34,405 bases of DNA from a virus (lineage: Duplodnaviria > Heunggongvirae > Uroviricota > Caudoviricetes). Location: the IMG/VR virus record IMGVR_UViG_2639762844_000002, positions 1-34,405 of that record. The stretch is one strand, 5' to 3'. Both the position numbers and the translations under genes were made by a program. Positions 6,594 to 27,359 of the stretch are shown piece after piece (position 1 is the first letter of the stretch; every line of letters starts with the position of its first letter). The notes beneath the pieces are model-generated. The model saw nothing but the letters and a program-made list of their open reading frames with translations, was not told where the DNA came from and made no database searches.

Positions 6594-8432
6594 ATGAGCG
6601 AGTTTGATGTTTTTTCTATTTCAGTTGATGATTTTAAAAAAAGTGAATACGCCAGTATATTATCATCGCCAAGAAGTTATTCTCATTTTGATATGGAGTC
6701 TTATTTTGTTCAGTTGTTGTCATCTTACAAGCTAAAAAACGATGTAAGTTCTTGGCGGCTTTGCTATTTATTACGTGCGTTGTTTAATTTTAAATTTTCT
6801 AGGTCTGGTGATATTATCGGTTTTGAGCCAAAAATCATTCTCTATCCTGAGAGGGGCTATAGGCCTTCAGATTATAAGGAGAGTTTTTCAACAATATTAA
6901 CTTGTATTAAAGAAAACTCCGATAATCCTTATATTATATCTAGGGTGTGTGATGTTTTATGGATAAATAACCGTAAGGATATAGACTCTGCCAATAAAGC
7001 AATAGAGTCATATTCTCTAATGGTTAATGATGCTTGCGATACTTTAATAGAAAAACAAGAGTCAGGTGATATCCATATTTTTGATGTTGTTGACTGCTTG
7101 GATAGAGGTATCGCAATATCGCGCATGCTTATTGGCAGGAAAAAACAACTACAAGGGGGGATAGTTGATTCGACATTAAGGTTATATCATGTATTAATAG
7201 ACTCTGGTATATTCACCGGTGTATTAAGAGTTTCTGAAATTCTTTATAAGAATAATTTATTGTGTCCCTTGCAATTGGCTGAGAATGCAGAAAAGATAGC
7301 TGATGAGCATTGTGGAGCGTCTTATTTTGATGCAGTGAAAAAATTGTTTTATTTTGCGTCTGAATTATATGTTAAAAACGATATGGAAGAGCAAGGAAGA
7401 CGGTGCAGAATTAAAGCGTCAGAAATAACATTGGCTCAATTTGAACAGTCTTCATCTTCAATATTGAAGGCTCATTGGTTAAGAGTTGCTCTTGGCGAAT
7501 TTAGAGCAATTGGTGGAATGAATGAAGAAATTAAAAAGATTAGAGAGGAATTGAATTCTATTCGAGATCAAATCAATGATGAAATGCACTTCTTTGCAAT
7601 ACCAATGGATCTTAGTGATGTTATCGCTCAGAAAGAGCATGTTTATAATCAATTGGATTTCTCAAGGGTAATTAAAACTTTAATTGCTAGATTTAAGATT
7701 GTAAGTGCCAGTGAAATTATGGAAAGAGCTCGTTCCGATGCTAAAAAACATTTTTTTCTTAATATGAGTGAAACGGTTGTTTATGATGATAGAGGGCGCG
7801 TTGTAGCAAGTCGTTCACCTTTGGATCCTGCGGGGGATATAAGTTTAAATGATGCTTGTGCAAATTATTTAAGAACTAGTAACATTGAGCATCAGGTCTA
7901 TGTTTGTGGTGAGTTTGAAGTCGTTAGGCAAAGTGTGTTGGCTAGGTATTCATTAAATGAAAATACATTTGACCCAATCTCACAACAAAGTGCATTTGTT
8001 CCACCTGGGTATGCAGAAATATTTTCTTTGGGGTTTTATAAGCTTTGGCAGGGAGATTATGTGTCTGCCTGTTATTTGTTATTGCCGCAATTGGAGAATT
8101 CAATTAGATGGATTTTAGAATTAAGAAGAAAAGAAACAACGAAAATAGATGTGTCGCTTTTTGAGGAGGCTACTAGCCTATCTCAAATGCTTGCAAATTA
8201 TAGGAGTGAAATGGAAGGTGTTTTTGATAGTGATCATGTATTGACTATGGATTTATTGTTCAATATGAAAGGTGGTGCTGCAATTAGACACACGATGGCT
8301 CATGGCAGGTATACTGTAAATCATTGTTATCAACCAACTTCAGTTTTTGCCTGTGTCTTTATCTTTTATTTAACTTGTTTGCCTTTATTTAGTGTATGGG
8401 AAGATAAAGTTGAACCTTATCTGGCTGATTAA
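6594..8432 (+). CDS. Cargo protein of unknown function (612 aa) at the tin/old hotspot; candidate anti-phage defence protein
   Basis: Long ORF in an AT-rich block between A and cos. RBS aggtgagg. No Walker A (GxxxxGK[ST]) motif, unlike P2 Old. C-terminal hydrophobic stretch SVFACVFIFYLTCLPLFSVW. An R-x4-H motif (AIRHTMAHG) sits near the C-terminus. Confidence 0.8.
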   Translation: MSEFDVFSISVDDFKKSEYASILSSPRSYSHFDMESYFVQLLSSYKLKNDVSSWRLCYLLRALFNFKFSRSGDIIGFEPKIILYPERGYRPSDYKESFSTILTCIKENSDNPYIISRVCDVLWINNRKDIDSANKAIESYSLMVNDACDTLIEKQESGDIHIFDVVDCLDRGIAISRMLIGRKKQLQGGIVDSTLRLYHVLIDSGIFTGVLRVSEILYKNNLLCPLQLAENAEKIADEHCGASYFDAVKKLFYFASELYVKNDMEEQGRRCRIKASEITLAQFEQSSSSILKAHWLRVALGEFRAIGGMNEEIKKIREELNSIRDQINDEMHFFAIPMDLSDVIAQKEHVYNQLDFSRVIKTLIARFKIVSASEIMERARSDAKKHFFLNMSETVVYDDRGRVVASRSPLDPAGDISLNDACANYLRTSNIEHQVYVCGEFEVVRQSVLARYSLNENTFDPISQQSAFVPPGYAEIFSLGFYKLWQGDYVSACYLLLPQLENSIRWILELRRKETTKIDVSLFEEATSLSQMLANYRSEMEGVFDSDHVLTMDLLFNMKGGAAIRHTMAHGRYTVNHCYQPTSVFACVFIFYLTCLPLFSVWEDKVEPYLAD

Positions 8433-21981: not shown

Positions 21982-24111
21982 ATGAGCACAAAATTCAGAA
22001 CCGTTATCACCACTGCCGGTGCAGCAAAGCTGGCAGCGGCAACCGCGCCGGGAGGGCGGAAGGTCAACATTACCACGATGGCCGTCGGGGATGGCGGTGG
22101 TAAATTGCCTGTCCCGGATGCCGGACAGACCGGGCTTATCCATGAAGTCTGGCGACATGCGCTGAACAAAATCAGCCAGGACAAACGAAACAGTAATTAT
22201 ATTATCGCAGAGCTGGTTATTCCGCCGGAGGTGGGCGGTTTCTGGATGCGGGAGCTTGGCCTGTACGATGATGCGGGAACGTTAATTGCCGTGGCGAACA
22301 TGGCCGAAAGCTATAAGCCAGCTCTTGCCGAAGGCTCAGGGCGTTCGCAGACCTGCCGCATGGTCATCATCGTCAGCAGTGTGGCCTCAGTGGAGCTGAC
22401 CATTGACACCACAACGGTGATGGCGACGCAGGATTACGTTGATGACAAAATTGCAGAGCATGAACAGTCACGACGTCACCCGGACGCCTCGCTGACCGCA
22501 AAAGGTTTTACTCAGTTAAGCAATGCGACCAACAGCACGTCTGAAACACTGGCCGCAACGCCAAAAGCAGTAAAGACCGCCTATGACCTGGCTAACGGGA
22601 AATATACTGCACAGGACGCCACCACCGCGCGAAAAGGCCTTGTTCAGCTCAGTAGTGCGACTAACAGCACGTCTGAAACGCTCGCCGCAACGCCAAAAGC
22701 AGTAAAGACCGCCTATGACCTTGCTAACGGGAAATACACTGCACAGGACGCCACCACAGCGCGAAAAGGGCTTGCTCAGCTCAGTAGCGCCACCAACAGC
22801 GATTCTGAAACGCTTGCGGCAACGCCAAAGGCGGTAAAGGCAGCATATGACCTCGCTAACGGGAAATATACCGCACAGGATGCCACCACTGCGCGAAAAG
22901 GTCTTGTCCAGCTCAGTAGCGCCACAAACAGCGATTCTGAAACGCTTGCGGCAACGCCAAAGGCGGTAAAGGTCGCGTATGACCTTGCTAACGGGAAATA
23001 CACTGCACAGGATGCCACCACAGCGCGAAAAGGGCTTGTTCAGCTCAGTAGCGCCACCAACAGTGATTCGGAAACGCTGGCCGCAACACCAAAAGCGGTG
23101 AAGTCTGCCTATGACAATGCTGAAAAACGTCTTCAGAAAGATCAAAATGGCGCGGATATTCCTGATAAAAGATTATTCCTGCGCAATATTGGAGCAACAA
23201 ATTCAACAACCATGTCTTTTAGTGGTGGTACAGGATGGTTCAGGCTGGCAACTGTAACCATGCCACAGGCCAGTTCCGTGGTTTACATAAGTCTGATTGG
23301 TGGTGCTGGATATAATGTTAACTCCCCTATGCAGGCTGGTATATCTGAACTTGTTCTTCGTGCGGGAAATGGAAATCCAAAAGGTCTTACTGGTGCGTTA
23401 TGGCGACGGACATCGGTTGGATTTACTAATTTTGCATGGGTGAATACATCCGGTGATACCTATGATGTTTATGTTGAAATAGGTAATTACGCCACAGGTG
23501 TTAATATTCAGTGGGATTATACCAGTAACGCCAGCGTAACGATTCATACATCACCATCTTATACAGCGAATAAACCAACAGGCCTGACAGATGGAACTGT
23601 ATATGTAATTTACAGTTCGCACATTAAACCGACTGCTGCTGATGTTGGGGCGTTGTCATTATCTGGAGGTCAATTGAATGGTGCACTGGGCATCGGAACA
23701 TCCAGTGCTCTTGGCGGTAACTCGATTGTTTTGGGTGATAATGACACGGGCTTTAAACAAAATGGCGACGGTAATCTGGATGTTTATGCTAATAACGTCC
23801 ATGTTATGCGCTTTGTCTCCGGTAGCATTCAAAGTAATAAAACCATAAATATTACGGGGCGTGTTAATCCCACAGATTACGGTAACTTTGATTCCCGCTA
23901 TGTCCGGGATATCCGGCTTGGTGGTGCTGCCACATACAAACCTGCGAACAATGGCATGACATGGACACATCAGGCACCGTCCGGGTGTATATATTCCGGC
24001 ATTATTGTTCAGGATACCGGCTCAAACTCTGCCGATAACATTGGTGGCGTATATTACAGACCGGTTCAGAAATACATTAACGGGACATGGTATAACGTGG
24101 CACAGGTATAA
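21982..24111 (+). CDS. H: Tail fibre protein H (mosaic, with internal tandem repeats)
   Basis: 709 aa. Conserved N-terminus, a central repeat array, and an AT-richer Gly/Tyr/Thr-rich C-terminal domain. Confidence 0.9.
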   Translation: MSTKFRTVITTAGAAKLAAATAPGGRKVNITTMAVGDGGGKLPVPDAGQTGLIHEVWRHALNKISQDKRNSNYIIAELVIPPEVGGFWMRELGLYDDAGTLIAVANMAESYKPALAEGSGRSQTCRMVIIVSSVASVELTIDTTTVMATQDYVDDKIAEHEQSRRHPDASLTAKGFTQLSNATNSTSETLAATPKAVKTAYDLANGKYTAQDATTARKGLVQLSSATNSTSETLAATPKAVKTAYDLANGKYTAQDATTARKGLAQLSSATNSDSETLAATPKAVKAAYDLANGKYTAQDATTARKGLVQLSSATNSDSETLAATPKAVKVAYDLANGKYTAQDATTARKGLVQLSSATNSDSETLAATPKAVKSAYDNAEKRLQKDQNGADIPDKRLFLRNIGATNSTTMSFSGGTGWFRLATVTMPQASSVVYISLIGGAGYNVNSPMQAGISELVLRAGNGNPKGLTGALWRRTSVGFTNFAWVNTSGDTYDVYVEIGNYATGVNIQWDYTSNASVTIHTSPSYTANKPTGLTDGTVYVIYSSHIKPTAADVGALSLSGGQLNGALGIGTSSALGGNSIVLGDNDTGFKQNGDGNLDVYANNVHVMRFVSGSIQSNKTINITGRVNPTDYGNFDSRYVRDIRLGGAATYKPANNGMTWTHQAPSGCIYSGIIVQDTGSNSADNIGGVYYRPVQKYINGTWYNVAQV
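22501..23110 (+). repeat. About 4.6 tandem copies of a 132-bp (44-aa) in-frame repeat within H
   Basis: Copies begin at 22501, 22633, 22765, 22897 and 23029. Each encodes KGLVQLSSATNSxSETLAATPKAVKxAYDLANGKYTAQDATTAR. Confidence 0.9.
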
Positions 24112-24114
24112 TTT

Positions 24115-24642
24115 ATGCAGCATTTGATAAATATAACAGCGGGGAATCCAAAAACGGTTGAACAATATCAATTGACAAAGGGTTTTGATGTTGTCTGGTT
24201 TTTTTCAGAAGATGGTAAGAACTGGTACGAAGAACAAAAGTATTTTGCTGATGACACGATAAAAATAGCGTACGACAAAGATAATATTATCCGCTATGTG
24301 GAAAAGGATGTGACAGCTATCAGACCAGATGGATTAAGTGTTGTTGAAGTGCCAGATATTACTGCTAACCGACGGGCGGACATTTCAGGGAACTGGATGT
24401 TTAAGGACGGCACAGTGATTAAACGAATTTATACGGCGGAGGAATTGCAGCAGCAGGCAGAAAATCGGAAAGCCAGACTTCTAGCAGATGCTGAATCCGT
24501 GATTTTGCCGCTGGAGCGCTCTGTCAGGCTGAACATGGCAACAGAGGAGGAGCGCACACGGCTGGAGGCTTGGGAACGCTATAGCGTTCTGGTCAGTCGT
24601 GTGGATCCTGCAAATCCTGAATGGCCGGAAATGCCGCAATAA
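24115..24642 (+). CDS. G: Tail fibre assembly chaperone
   Basis: 175 aa, immediately downstream of H. Confidence 0.88.
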
Positions 24643-24694
24643 GTTGTATGAGCTCTGGTGGGAGCCTACATATCTATGGCACAGAGTAAAGCCT

Positions 24695-24730
24695 AATCTG
24701 ACAGTCCGCTCTGTGCCAAAAGCGGACGTT
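24695..24730. repeat. Left copy of a 36-nt imperfect inverted repeat flanking the Z/fun-locus cargo gene
   Basis: aatctgacagtccgctctgtgccaaaagcggacgtt; its reverse complement matches 25951..25986 at 32 of 36 positions. Overlapping hairpins ggcacagag/ctctgtgcc and gtccgct/agcggac are present. Confidence 0.6.
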
Positions 24731-24805
24731 ATAAATTTCTTTTAGGGCAACCGAAAAAAGAGGGGTACGACCTATACTTGATTTGTATTTTAGATCACGC
24801 TTGCA

Positions 24806-25846
24806 TCAGTATAAATTTAACCCAAGCTTACTAATTTCTTTTCTACGCATTCCAAAAATAACATCACCACTTCTAGAAATGAATGAAGCAATGCGTCGGT
24901 CATTGTCATCTACACCTTCCCAGAAGAAAGGGACATTATTGTTCATCAGACTTTCTGCAAAGGTTAAATGTGTTAACGCCAAGAAAATTCTAACAAAATT
25001 AGATGGCTCATTGAAATCCTGATTCAGCAAATGTAGTGTCAAATGTCTATTGAAGCTACCTTCATTAACACCTCCAGTTGGTTTATATATGACATTTTTA
25101 AAAAAAGATCTGGTTGAATTCATCACATCACACTGGGGGTTTAAATGTGTGAAAAAATCCACCTCAGTTTCAATGTCATAACCTTTGCCGGGATGCCAGT
25201 CAAAATTTGGGAGCTGCCGTCTTCCCCATGTAATAATGAGTTTTCTAATTTCCTTTTCAAATCTGTCTGCACTTGTATTTGTGTTGTCACCATCACAAAA
25301 TTTTACAAGTAAGTTCCTCAATCCACCTTCAAAGACAGGGAAGAGCGACATTATAGATATATGATCATACCCCAAATAAAAAGCTTCTATAGCTTCAAAA
25401 ATAATTGTCTTGTAGTTTTTTAGTGATTCGCTCTTTATAAAGTATTTGTTGAAGTAAGCAATTGCAATTTCTAATGAGAAATTTTCGAATAACCATTTAT
25501 TTGAATTATTAAGCGGATTTTCACTTCTTTTAATTTCATGGATTGCAGAAGAAAGAGTGCCTTCTCCAATATATAGGGGTAATGCTATACCAAGTGAATT
25601 TGCATGCGACTGAATATTCGAACATCGTCCCCAATGTCTATTTAAGTACGATATTGGCCTTTCGGTAAGCAAGAAGTTTAAATCATCAATTTTAACTGTG
25701 AAAGAAGCATAACAAAGTTCACTTTTTGAGATTACTGGTTCTACGCTATGATTTCTCCTGAATTGATTTAGAATTTCATTCTCAGAGAGTTTGTCTAATT
25801 TTGATAAGCGTTTCAAAGTTGGCAGGAATTTTTCTAAATCTGACAT
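24806..25846 (-). CDS. Cargo protein of unknown function (346 aa) at the Z/fun locus; candidate anti-phage or exclusion protein
   Basis: AT-rich ORF on the strand opposite the late genes, between G and FI where P2 carries Z/fun. Own AT-rich upstream region. No recognisable motif. Confidence 0.8.
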   Translation of the reverse strand: MSDLEKFLPTLKRLSKLDKLSENEILNQFRRNHSVEPVISKSELCYASFTVKIDDLNFLLTERPISYLNRHWGRCSNIQSHANSLGIALPLYIGEGTLSSAIHEIKRSENPLNNSNKWLFENFSLEIAIAYFNKYFIKSESLKNYKTIIFEAIEAFYLGYDHISIMSLFPVFEGGLRNLLVKFCDGDNTNTSADRFEKEIRKLIITWGRRQLPNFDWHPGKGYDIETEVDFFTHLNPQCDVMNSTRSFFKNVIYKPTGGVNEGSFNRHLTLHLLNQDFNEPSNFVRIFLALTHLTFAESLMNNNVPFFWEGVDDNDRRIASFISRSGDVIFGMRRKEISKLGLNLY

Positions 25847-25950
25847 AATAATCCTAAAAGTTAAGAATTAATCTTTACGAAAGATATCATATGATACTTT
25901 GATTAATTATACTATTTAATGGTGTTTTTATCAGCACAGAACTAAGCGTA

Positions 25951-25986
25951 AACGTCCGCTTTTCGCTCAAAGCAGACTGTCAGATT
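25951..25986. repeat. Right copy of the 36-nt imperfect inverted repeat flanking the Z/fun-locus cargo gene
   Basis: aacgtccgcttttcgctcaaagcagactgtcagatt; partner of 24695..24730. Confidence 0.6.
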
Positions 25987-26043
25987 TGATAGCGTTTGGG
26001 CTATGTAATAGTCAGTTGGAAAATGAGTGAGTACAAATCAGGA

Positions 26044-26072
26044 CAGGCGGGCTGATTGCCCGCCTTTTCTTT
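26044..26072 (+). terminator. Rho-independent terminator (aggcgggc-tgatt-gcccgcct + ttttcttt)
   Basis: Perfect GC stem followed by a T-run on the plus strand, upstream of FI. Probably the original V-G operon terminator, displaced by the cargo insertion. Confidence 0.6.
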
Positions 26073-26168
26073 ATCTGTTGTTTCATCCACTGACCAGCCA
26101 GGTCAAATAGCGTCTCATGTACTACCCAACGGAAAATAGTTGCACCCATTAACCACGGAGTTAAACGG

Positions 26169-27359
26169 ATGAGTGACTATCATCACGGCGTGCAGGTGCT
26201 GGAGATTAACGACGGCACCCGCGTCATTTCCACTGTATCCACGGCCATTGTCGGCATGGTCTGCACGGCCAGCGATGCGGATGCGGAAACCTTCCCCCTC
26301 AATAAACCGGTGCTGATTACCAATGTGCAAAGCGCAATTGCAAAGGCCGGTAAAAAAGGCACGCTGGCGGCTGCGTTGCAGGCCATCGCCGACCAGTCAA
26401 AACCGGTCACCGTTGTTGTGCGTGTGGAAGACGGCACCGGCGACGACGAGGAAACGAAGCTCGCGCAGACCGTTTCCAATATCATCGGCACCACCGACGA
26501 AAACGGTCAGTACACCGGACTGAAAGCCCTGCTGGCGGCGGAGTCGGTAACCGGTGTTAAACCGCGCATTCTCGGTGTGCCGGGACTGGACACCAAAGAG
26601 GTGGCTGTTGCACTGGCATCAGTCTGTCAGAAGCTGCGCGCTTTCGGGTATATCAGCGCATGGGGCTGTAAAACCATTTCTGAGGTGAAAGCCTACCGCC
26701 AGAATTTCAGCCAGCGTGAGCTGATGGTCATCTGGCCGGATTTCCTCGCATGGGATACGGTCACCAGTACCACCGCCACCGCGTATGCCACTGCCCGTGC
26801 GCTGGGTCTGCGCGCTAAAATCGACCAGGAGCAGGGCTGGCATAAAACGCTGTCCAACGTTGGGGTGAACGGTGTTACCGGCATCAGTGCATCTGTATTC
26901 TGGGATTTGCAGGAGTCCGGCACCGATGCTGACCTGTTGAACGAGTCAGGTGTCACAACGCTGATTCGCCGTGACGGTTTCCGCTTCTGGGGTAACCGTA
27001 CCTGCTCTGATGACCCGCTGTTCCTCTTTGAAAACTACACCCGCACCGCGCAGGTGCTGGCCGACACGATGGCTGAGGCGCACATGTGGGCGGTGGACAA
27101 GCCCATCACTGCAACGCTGATTCGCGACATCGTTGACGGCATCAATGCCAAATTCCGTGAGCTGAAAACAAACGGCTATATCGTGGATGCGACCTGCTGG
27201 TTCAGCGAAGAATCCAACGATGCGGAAACCCTCAAGGCCGGAAAACTGTATATCGACTACGACTATACACCGGTGCCTCCTCTCGAAAACCTGACCCTGC
27301 GCCAGCGTATTACCGATAAATACCTGGCAAATCTGGTCACCTCGGTTAACAGCAATTAA
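26169..27359 (+). CDS. FI: Tail sheath protein
   Basis: 396 aa; length as P2 FI. Confidence 0.92.
   Translation: MSDYHHGVQVLEINDGTRVISTVSTAIVGMVCTASDADAETFPLNKPVLITNVQSAIAKAGKKGTLAAALQAIADQSKPVTVVVRVEDGTGDDEETKLAQTVSNIIGTTDENGQYTGLKALLAAESVTGVKPRILGVPGLDTKEVAVALASVCQKLRAFGYISAWGCKTISEVKAYRQNFSQRELMVIWPDFLAWDTVTSTTATAYATARALGLRAKIDQEQGWHKTLSNVGVNGVTGISASVFWDLQESGTDADLLNESGVTTLIRRDGFRFWGNRTCSDDPLFLFENYTRTAQVLADTMAEAHMWAVDKPITATLIRDIVDGINAKFRELKTNGYIVDATCWFSEESNDAETLKAGKLYIDYDYTPVPPLENLTLRQRITDKYLANLVTSVNSN

Follow-up and report, generated by a model that had tools for sequence, protein, structure and literature searches.

The interval between genes G and FI of P2-like phages is among the best-known reservoirs of anti-phage systems, and the way in which new systems enter it has been treated as an open question; Rousset 2022 (PMC9122126) speculates on cos-end and homologous recombination as the route into this hotspot. 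We analyzed this interval in IMG/VR virus record IMGVR_UViG_2639762844_000002, the 34,405 nucleotides (nt) of which are called the window throughout. The window is a P2-like prophage in which an AT-rich segment with a single antisense open reading frame (ORF) lies between G and FI, at the position of Z/fun in P2, and an identical stretch was found in E. coli Ec40743. Two imperfect 36-nt inverted repeats, here called arms, bracket the segment, and the question is what these arms are and what they say about the arrival of the cargo between them. An original prediction, made from the letters alone, had offered three readings: recombination boundaries of a cassette, ends like those of miniature inverted-repeat transposable elements (MITEs), or bidirectional terminators or insulators. 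We found the repeats to be real and biologically meaningful, the first two of these readings to be essentially right, and the third to be unsupported. The arms are very likely the cargo-proximal parts of terminal inverted repeats of about 86 nt that belong to a non-autonomous, passenger-carrying transposable element.

The arms remain constant while the cargo varies

The match between 24695-24730 and the reverse complement of 25951-25986 was recounted and found to be 32 of 36 positions, as predicted. A repeat search returned arms of 36 nt that were 89% complementary, with 1,220 nt between them. When positions 24000-26600 were shuffled 60 times (dinucleotide-type shuffles), the best 36-nt inverted match averaged 24.5 and reached a maximum of 28.

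We examined 85 P2-like junctions: 80 from viral contigs, located by their sheath protein, and 5 from deposited phage genomes. Both arms were carried in the same inverted arrangement by 48 of the 85, with interiors of 0.8 to 4.1 kb, and these junctions together with the window fell into 33 cargo clusters. The repeat is thus held constant at G-FI junctions with both arms kept while the cargo changes, which is what the original prediction had expected of an exchange boundary. Column conservation was 80 to 100% through the flank and the arm and gave way to AT-rich background right after arm position 36 on both sides, a step that bears out the arms as the boundaries of the cassette. The same edges were seen in E. 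coli genomes, more than 2,000 of which had left-flank homology that ended at 24727-24731, the inner edge of the left arm, and right-flank homology began at 25948-25951, the inner edge of the right arm. Identity between junctions with different cargo was highest in arm positions 1 to 23 (0.91), followed by the outer 50 nt (0.83), arm positions 24 to 36 (0.65), and the cargo (0.27). The innermost third of the arm moves in part with the cargo, and the first two-thirds are the most constant part. Junctions with the same cargo also had ends that were alike, with an identity of at least 0.96. An invertible segment of the Hin/Gin/Cin or FimB/E type was rejected, as the cargo was inverted between the arms in none of 16 same-cargo comparisons and the window cassette contained no invertase.

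The 80 sheath-anchored junctions comprised 43 with both ends, 7 that were empty, 1 with a B-type end (defined below) only, 28 with other content, and 1 with too little upstream DNA. Junctions without ends form a sizeable class, made up of these 28 and of E. coli genomes H107 to H118. Some of the end-less E. coli prophages have a "recombinase family protein" directly upstream of FI, with homology to the window beginning only at 26078, and this may be a tail-fibre invertase arrangement; a recombinase upstream of FI was seen only in this different, arm-less junction class. Phage P2 itself (AF063097.1, 17430-17514; locus L331, 2031-2115) has a B end alone upstream of FI and no A end, and downstream of its G gene come the annotated G terminator and then fun(Z), making the type phage an incomplete example of the architecture. 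Ends in tandem, back to back, or nested were found at L116 (1500-1600), L124 (6022-7843), and L044 (4318-4557), and one P2 junction had three arms and one A and B pair spanned 240 nt with 68 nt between its ends. This suggests elements inserted into or beside each other, or cassette arrays.

The arms are the inner parts of longer, asymmetric ends

Arm copies were also found outside P2 tail modules, next to nanQ and in CP4-44-type islands, a lambdoid prophage, and an element resembling an integrative and conjugative element (ICE-like). In these copies the arm makes up the innermost 36 nt of an end of about 86 nt, and TGTATTAGCTCA starts exactly 50 nt further out. Across 18 sites the ends begin with TGTATTAGCTCA at both termini, so that the elements have the form TGTA...TACA. 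Each of the 18 elements had one A end (...GGCACAGAGCYAAACCT AATCTGACAGKCNGCTCTGTGCCA...) and one B end (...TTTTCACTGGCAGCACACAATCA AATCTGACAGTCTGCTTTGAGCGA...), and because every element pairs A with B, the four mismatches in the 36-nt repeat are fixed differences between the two end types and not drift. Agreement between the A and B consensus sequences was 0.92 at the terminus, 0.83 in the arm, and 0.46 in the middle, and each end contained two direct copies of a motif of about 16 to 20 nt, offset by 33 nt.

In the window the left end is of the A type, with the signature GGCACAGAG...CTCTGTGCC within 24645-24730, and the right end is of the B type, with the signature CTGCTTTGAGCGA within 25951-26035. 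A profile built from 70 unique ends of about 86 nt, taken from all loci examined, matched both over its full length (24645-24729 at 75.6 bits and 26035-25952 at 46.3 bits). Compared directly with each other, the two window ends matched in inverted orientation for about 36 to 38 nt, and their outer 52 to 56 nt scored like shuffles. There was also a third arm subtype, which beyond arm position 22 or so reads TGTGAGTTCAAYGGGTCGATGCAA and not the SA-RRAGCGGACRTT of the A and B arms; it is kept in ten species (L237, L241, L254, L259, L279, L280, L282, L287, L297, and L314) and runs into divergent DNA. The TGTGAGTTCAAYGGGTCGATGCAA interior had been considered as a pointer to a conserved gene, a possibility rejected because it is merely this subtype ahead of divergent sequence.

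Elements with A and B ends bracket other cargo in lambdoid prophages, ICE-like elements, islands, and plasmids. Full ends were found in many genera of Enterobacterales and in one Pseudomonas. Ends were present in 68 plasmids and in 3,008 of 5,426 complete E. coli genomes (55%), at one to five places in each. Matches outside the Proteobacteria were rejected as chance, since the remaining, untested parts of the end were absent from them.

Several of these loci have features of their own. In the CP4-44-type islands of two E. coli strains (L204, 15003-20543; L207, 15003-18798) an A-type arm directly follows a yeeP-like GTPase gene, and several kb away a B-like arm adjoins conserved backbone, with cargo that differs between the two strains, which makes this another hotspot with these arms; L204 has an additional B-type arm in its middle. 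The ICE-like copy of E. coli PSS-13 (L206, 15259-18858) carries a pPIWI-associated nuclease, a 464-amino-acid (aa) protein, and a DUF4365 protein; its 7-bp duplication is perfect and falls within a bidirectional terminator that separates two convergent genes. At 7114 another arm adjoins an AAA ATPase and HNH pair. On Klebsiella quasipneumoniae plasmid NZ_CP034130.1 (L334, 9001-10704), on about 20 similar plasmids, and at L301 (4885-6120) the end matches at positions 1 to 73 only, and the gene of an IS110-family (ISEsa2) transposase follows about 400 nt later. One paired element also contains an IS110 ORF. By analogy with IS4321 and IS5075, which insert into Tn21 repeats, the L334-type loci look like an IS110-family element inserting into the arm itself.

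The element was inserted between G and its terminator

In the P2-like junctions that lack cargo (7 counted, 4 inspected), ATACAGGCGGGCTGATTGCCCGCCTTTTCTTT follows directly after the TAA of G, and this sequence is the terminator found at 26044-26072 in the window. Because the empty junctions run from the G stop straight into the terminator, the stretch 24645-26035 is inserted DNA that separates G from its own terminator, which is that of the V operon and has been pushed away. The canonical terminator predicted just outside the right repeat was confirmed, with an 8-bp G+C stem followed by a T-run and a folding z of -4.2. The empty junctions also have a single 7-mer, AATAAAT or AATAAAC, between GC and ACAGGCGGG, compared to two around the window insert.

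Pairing of ends over all loci yielded 77 pairs, which represent 18 distinct sites. Immediately outside the termini, the 7 nt on the two sides were identical at 12 of the 18 sites, agreed at 6 of 7 positions at two more, and agreed at 5 of 7 at the P2 site. The mean flank match was 6.17, compared to 3.39 for re-paired flanks (maximum 4.67 in 2,000 trials), and it fell to 1.3 to 2.2 when the register was shifted by 1 to 3 bases in either direction. Since the 7-mers differ between sites (CTTAATC, GCTAACT, TTTAAAT, and others), they are target duplications and not a recombination core. For the ICE-like site, 53 E. coli genomes matched the predicted empty allele over 200 nt without interruption; an empty allele was also looked for at the L098 site and none was found. 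Of 15 reconstructed targets, five or six adjoin or fall within a strong terminator-like hairpin, as at P2. The suggestion of MITE-like ends therefore held in an extended form, the arms being the inner part of terminal inverted repeats of about 86 nt with 7-bp target-site duplications.

The termini and the duplication of the P2 copy have decayed identically in all P2-like junctions, so new cargos at the P2 site replaced the interior and did not arrive by fresh transposition. The features of the locus, with the evidence for each in parentheses, are as follows.

21982-24111, plus strand: gene H, tail fibre.
24115-24642, plus strand: gene G, tail-fibre assembly, 175 aa, the final late gene of the V operon (ORF; Pfam Caudo_TAP, E 1e-33).
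24638-24644, no strand: left 7-bp target-site duplication, AATAAGT, with the G stop TAA inside it (empty junctions; flank comparison, 5/7 versus the right copy).
24645-24730, plus strand: A-type terminal repeat, 86 nt, consisting of the terminus TGTATGAGCTCT, a sub-repeat, and then the 36-nt arm (nhmmer with the end profile, 75.6 bits, full length).
24695-24730, plus strand: left 36-nt arm, the inner part of the A end and the final conserved bases ahead of the cargo.
24731-25950, no strand: variable cargo segment, AT-rich, 29-39% G+C (composition; 33 alternative cargos at the same position elsewhere).
24806-25846, minus strand: cargo gene, 346 aa, of an uncharacterised family (ORF).
25906-25934, minus strand: putative sigma-70-like promoter of the cargo gene, CTGATA-17-TATAAT, within the cassette (10/12 consensus match only).
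25951-26035, minus strand: B-type terminal repeat, 85 nt, consisting of the terminus TGTACTCACTCA (reverse complement) and then the arm (nhmmer, 46.3 bits, full length).
25951-25986, minus strand: right 36-nt arm, the inner part of the B end.
26036-26042, no strand: right 7-bp target-site duplication, AATCAGG, decayed.
26044-26072, plus strand: intrinsic terminator, the V-operon terminator moved by the insertion (fold z -4.2; terminator prediction; empty junctions).
26169-27359, plus strand: gene FI, tail sheath (ORF; Pfam Phage_sheath_1, Phage_sheath_1C, and Gp18_domIII_N).

Within gene H, at 22500-23150 on the plus strand, the translation shows about five tandem copies of a unit of about 44 aa (…ATTARKGLVQLSSATNS.SETLAATPKAVK.AYDLANGKYTAQD…), which are mirrored by repeated 40-aa ORFs in other frames.

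Cargo genes

We surveyed 43 distinct interiors through their 64 largest ORFs. Most of these ORFs are known defence components, including a CBASS cyclase with a four-transmembrane (4TM) effector, DarT/DarG, AbiGi, LmuB, PD-T7-1, and PD-T7-5, as well as PDC-S31, ABC-3C, a pPIWI-associated nuclease, RES, and SMEK; a few of the ORFs are metabolic. The cargo protein of the window had no match in Pfam, PADLOC, NCBIfam, or PHROGs. It has 84 homologues in the Gammaproteobacteria (Enterobacterales, Aeromonas, Pseudomonas, Vibrio, and Shewanella), 25 of which were aligned and shared 51 invariant residues. Its structural model was mostly helical and confident (predicted local distance difference test [pLDDT] 85, predicted template modelling score [pTM] 0.81), and a fold search of the PDB with this model returned no match. 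Since homologues occupy other mobile-element hotspots, the protein is a candidate new defence gene. The idea that the same cargo moves with the same ends was rejected: the Pantoea, Serratia, and Ewingella homologues are without ends, and the Brenneria homologue has only a partial arm nearby. The contexts without full ends indicate that the ends are not an obligatory part of a cargo.

A proposed mechanism and the evidence against it

We propose that a single insertion, in an ancestor of many P2-like phages, placed the element between the G stop codon and the G terminator, and that 7 bp of target would have been duplicated in the process. The P2 copy would now be a fossil, its termini and target duplication decayed, and time after time other genes, most of them anti-phage, would have taken the place of its interior, with junctions exactly at the inner edges of the arms. 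The insertion step may have been carried out by a DDE-type transposase supplied in trans that cuts with a 7-bp stagger and recognises both direct sub-repeats of each end. Turnover of cargo at the P2 site might proceed when resident copies in different mobile elements recombine through their conserved ends, with the arms presumably kept as protein-binding sequence and not as hairpins. On how cargo is replaced our confidence is low; the identity pattern fits exchange through the arms and does not distinguish homologous from site-specific recombination. A broader proposal, which we put forward tentatively as somewhat short of an even chance, is that a trans-acting transposase, alone or with a recombinase, mobilises a family of A/B-end defence cassettes across the Enterobacterales, and that the P2 G/FI locus and similar hotspots (lambdoid, ICE-like, CP4-44-type, and plasmid) are resident docking copies whose cargo is swapped via the arms.

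The search for a mobilising enzyme was negative within its scope. No transposase was found among 64 plus 10 cargo ORFs except for one nested IS110, no transposase genes were found near plasmid or chromosomal copies, and no autonomous copy was found in plasmids, among the consensus-like E. coli copies, or among the largest elements. An annotated "transposase" beside the nanQ copy (L001) was rejected, as it is a 101-aa ORF that matches neither Pfam nor NCBIfam, and a comparison with IS21 ends at L207 was uninformative.

Several observations count against transposition as we propose it. Neither an autonomous copy nor a cognate transposase was found in the copies searched, which makes the case for transposition one of anatomy. 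The termini of the P2 copy, TGTATGAGCTCT and TGTACTCACTCA, deviate from the consensus TGTATTAGCTCA, and its own duplication (AATAAGT/AATCAGG) is the imperfect 5-of-7 match reported above. An arm-internal pattern was used to seed both the end profile and the covariation set, and this inflates the conservation of arm positions 3 to 22 outside the P2 set. Homologues of the window cargo occur in four other mobile-element contexts, three without ends and one with a partial arm. The exact abutment of more than 30 different cargos on the ends is not explained by transposition. Finally, a 7-bp duplication does not fit the best-known families with multi-site ends, Tn7, Mu, and Tn5053 all making 5-bp duplications.

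Alternative explanations

The arms could instead be functionless relics, with cargo exchanged by homologous recombination in the long, near-identical G and FI genes of co-resident P2-like phages. The fossil-like state of the P2 copy would be expected on this account, as would the likeness of the ends at same-cargo junctions (at least 0.96) if whole segments are moved by flanking homology, and backbone identity across phages is 88 to 94%; Rousset 2022 (PMC9122126) proposes homologous recombination for exchange at the hotspot. Such exchange covers the spread of existing cargos but not the entry of more than 30 new ones at the same two nucleotides, and the arms are better conserved than the neighbouring non-coding outer parts and are conserved across genera in unrelated mobile elements. 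We consider this explanation somewhat unlikely.

We judge it unlikely, too, that a site-specific recombinase recognises the repeats and trades the cassette between phages and bacterial genomes. Such an interpretation is attributed to Nilsson, Karlsson, and Haggard-Ljungquist 2004 (Mol Biol Evol) by Benler and Koonin 2022 (PMC8987985), who also say that the Z-region repeats occur in bacterial genomes. The sharp boundaries shared by 33 cargos at the inner arm edges are in keeping with it, as are the repeats we found in bacterial genomes, the superior conservation of arm positions 1 to 23 among different-cargo junctions (0.91 versus 0.83 in the outer part), and the presence in the L207 cargo of a gene for a 200-aa tyrosine recombinase of the invertase/Xer type. 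However, no recombinase is conserved in or beside the elements, the flanking 7-mers vary from site to site as target duplications do and a recombination core does not, the cargo was inverted in none of the 16 comparisons, and an attC-like GTTRRRY core is not conserved past RTT. A relationship to integron cassettes and attC sites was rejected: no integrase lies in the region of the window or recurs in the cargos, and the arms end in RTT, after which the next bases are not conserved. Site-specific recombination could nonetheless account for the cargo swap, with transposition explaining the insertion step.

That the arms are hairpin terminators or insulators, shielding the antisense cargo gene from late transcription, is very improbable. 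Both arms contain a short palindrome, GTCYGCT-N10-AGCRGAC, a helix of 9 to 11 bp is possible in the left end, and late transcription from G needs a stop somewhere now that the terminator has been displaced by 1.4 kb. The two stems described in the original prediction are indeed present (GGCACAGAG/CTCTGTGCC at 24679-24717, which is the minimum-free-energy helix, and GTCCGCT/AGCGGAC at 24704-24727), but the arms fold unremarkably, with z from -0.6 to -2.2, and only the terminator, not the arms, folds better than shuffled sequence. Neither arm has a U-tract or was called as a terminator, the only calls being 26045-26065 and an overlapping sub-call at 26046-26060. Across the 70 unique ends, compensatory changes were seen in 2 of 7 pairs of the small stem and in 0 of 9 pairs of the big stem, for which the test has little power, the search pattern having fixed some of the 3' columns, and the paired fraction equalled the column-shuffle expectation. 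About one-quarter of the arms at P2 sites are also without the inner half of the small stem. As neither stem covaries, the arms look conserved as sequence, and they may be protein-binding sites.

A search of Rfam for structured RNA returned no family at E below 0.29, with STnc150 and PrrB/RsmZ the only sub-threshold matches; the weak STnc150 match (25853-26075, plus strand; 18.7 bits compared to a gathering score of 60, E 0.29) runs across the B end and the terminator. A relationship to enterobacterial repetitive intergenic consensus (ERIC) or intergenic repeat unit (IRU) sequences was rejected, since local alignment scores of 7 to 10 equalled the shuffle mean (with an ERIC consensus based on primer sequences).

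Chance similarity, for which nothing speaks except the modest repeat length, is refuted by the shuffles (at most 28 of 36, compared to 32) and by the recurrence of the arm pair in 48 further junctions and thousands of genomes.

Significance

What this analysis adds is the identification of the repeats as, in all probability, the ends of a widespread, non-autonomous transposable element that carries defence genes. If the hotspot is a resident transposon-like cassette with relatives elsewhere, it offers a testable route by which defence genes could pass between phages, islands, ICEs, and plasmids, and the A and B ends provide a simple sequence signature both for mining new defence genes and for hunting the enzyme. 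If the hotspots are indeed docking sites, they would form a system that exchanges immunity genes in an integron-like manner, one with no known enzyme.

Comparison with known systems

The repeats have been annotated before. GenBank entries AJ512680 and AJ512677 ("proviral Z-region") label a "left inverted repeat" of 113 nt and a "right inverted repeat" of 91 nt, which align base for base with window positions 24615-24727 and 25950-26043 and are matched by the end profile, and AJ512683 uses the same "right inverted repeat" label. These P2 Z-region repeats are the same feature as ours, namely, the A and B ends with some adjoining bases, around ORFs described as "putative lysogenic conversion". 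The repeats and their reading as an exchange boundary are thus already published. The difference from the site-specific recombination reading, as conveyed by PMC8987985, lies in the 7-bp target duplications, the TGTA...TACA termini, the asymmetry of A and B, and the empty alleles, all of which point to transposition, and this evidence may be the new part. The P2 anti-phage hotspots (PMC9122126; preprint 10.64898/2026.02.27.708500) are the same G-FI locus with variable defence cargo. Word searches of PMC9122126 and of the 2026 preprint found nothing on repeats flanking the hotspot, on motifs at its boundaries, or on transposition there, and the transposon anatomy seems not to be used in the current defence-hotspot literature.

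The elements resemble integron cassettes and the pdif modules of Acinetobacter in being small gene modules, with or without a promoter, that have sharp ends and inverted elements and are interchangeable at one position, and in having tandem or nested arms at a few loci (L116, L124, and L044). Unlike those systems, they have no IntI or attI, no XerC/D-like site, and no GTTRRRY core, and they have outer target-site duplications instead; integron and Xer recombination make none.

There is also a structural likeness to the multi-site, asymmetric ends of the Mu, Tn7, Tn552, and IS21 type, in the form of TG...CA termini, left and right ends that differ, sub-sites repeated within about 90 nt, and frequent insertion beside terminators, as with Tn7 at glmS. 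The P2-type elements differ from Mu, Tn7, and Tn5053 in making a 7-bp and not a 5-bp duplication and in having no associated TnsB-, MuA-, or IstA-like gene. A specific resemblance to Mu ends, which likewise begin TGTATT, was rejected, as alignment to the real Mu L and R ends was no better than to shuffles and there was no profile match. We know of no parent insertion sequence or transposon for the A and B ends.

Mobile insertion cassettes such as MIC231 of Bacillus cereus and the Tn3-derived inverted-repeat miniature elements (TIMEs) are passenger-carrying, non-autonomous transposons, and the elements described here are like them in placing transposase-less transposon ends around one to a few passenger genes, presumably to be mobilised in trans. 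They are unlike them in that the P2-type ends are far longer, at about 86 nt, and come in two types, and in that the cargo is mostly anti-phage, with dozens of alternatives housed in one resident copy.

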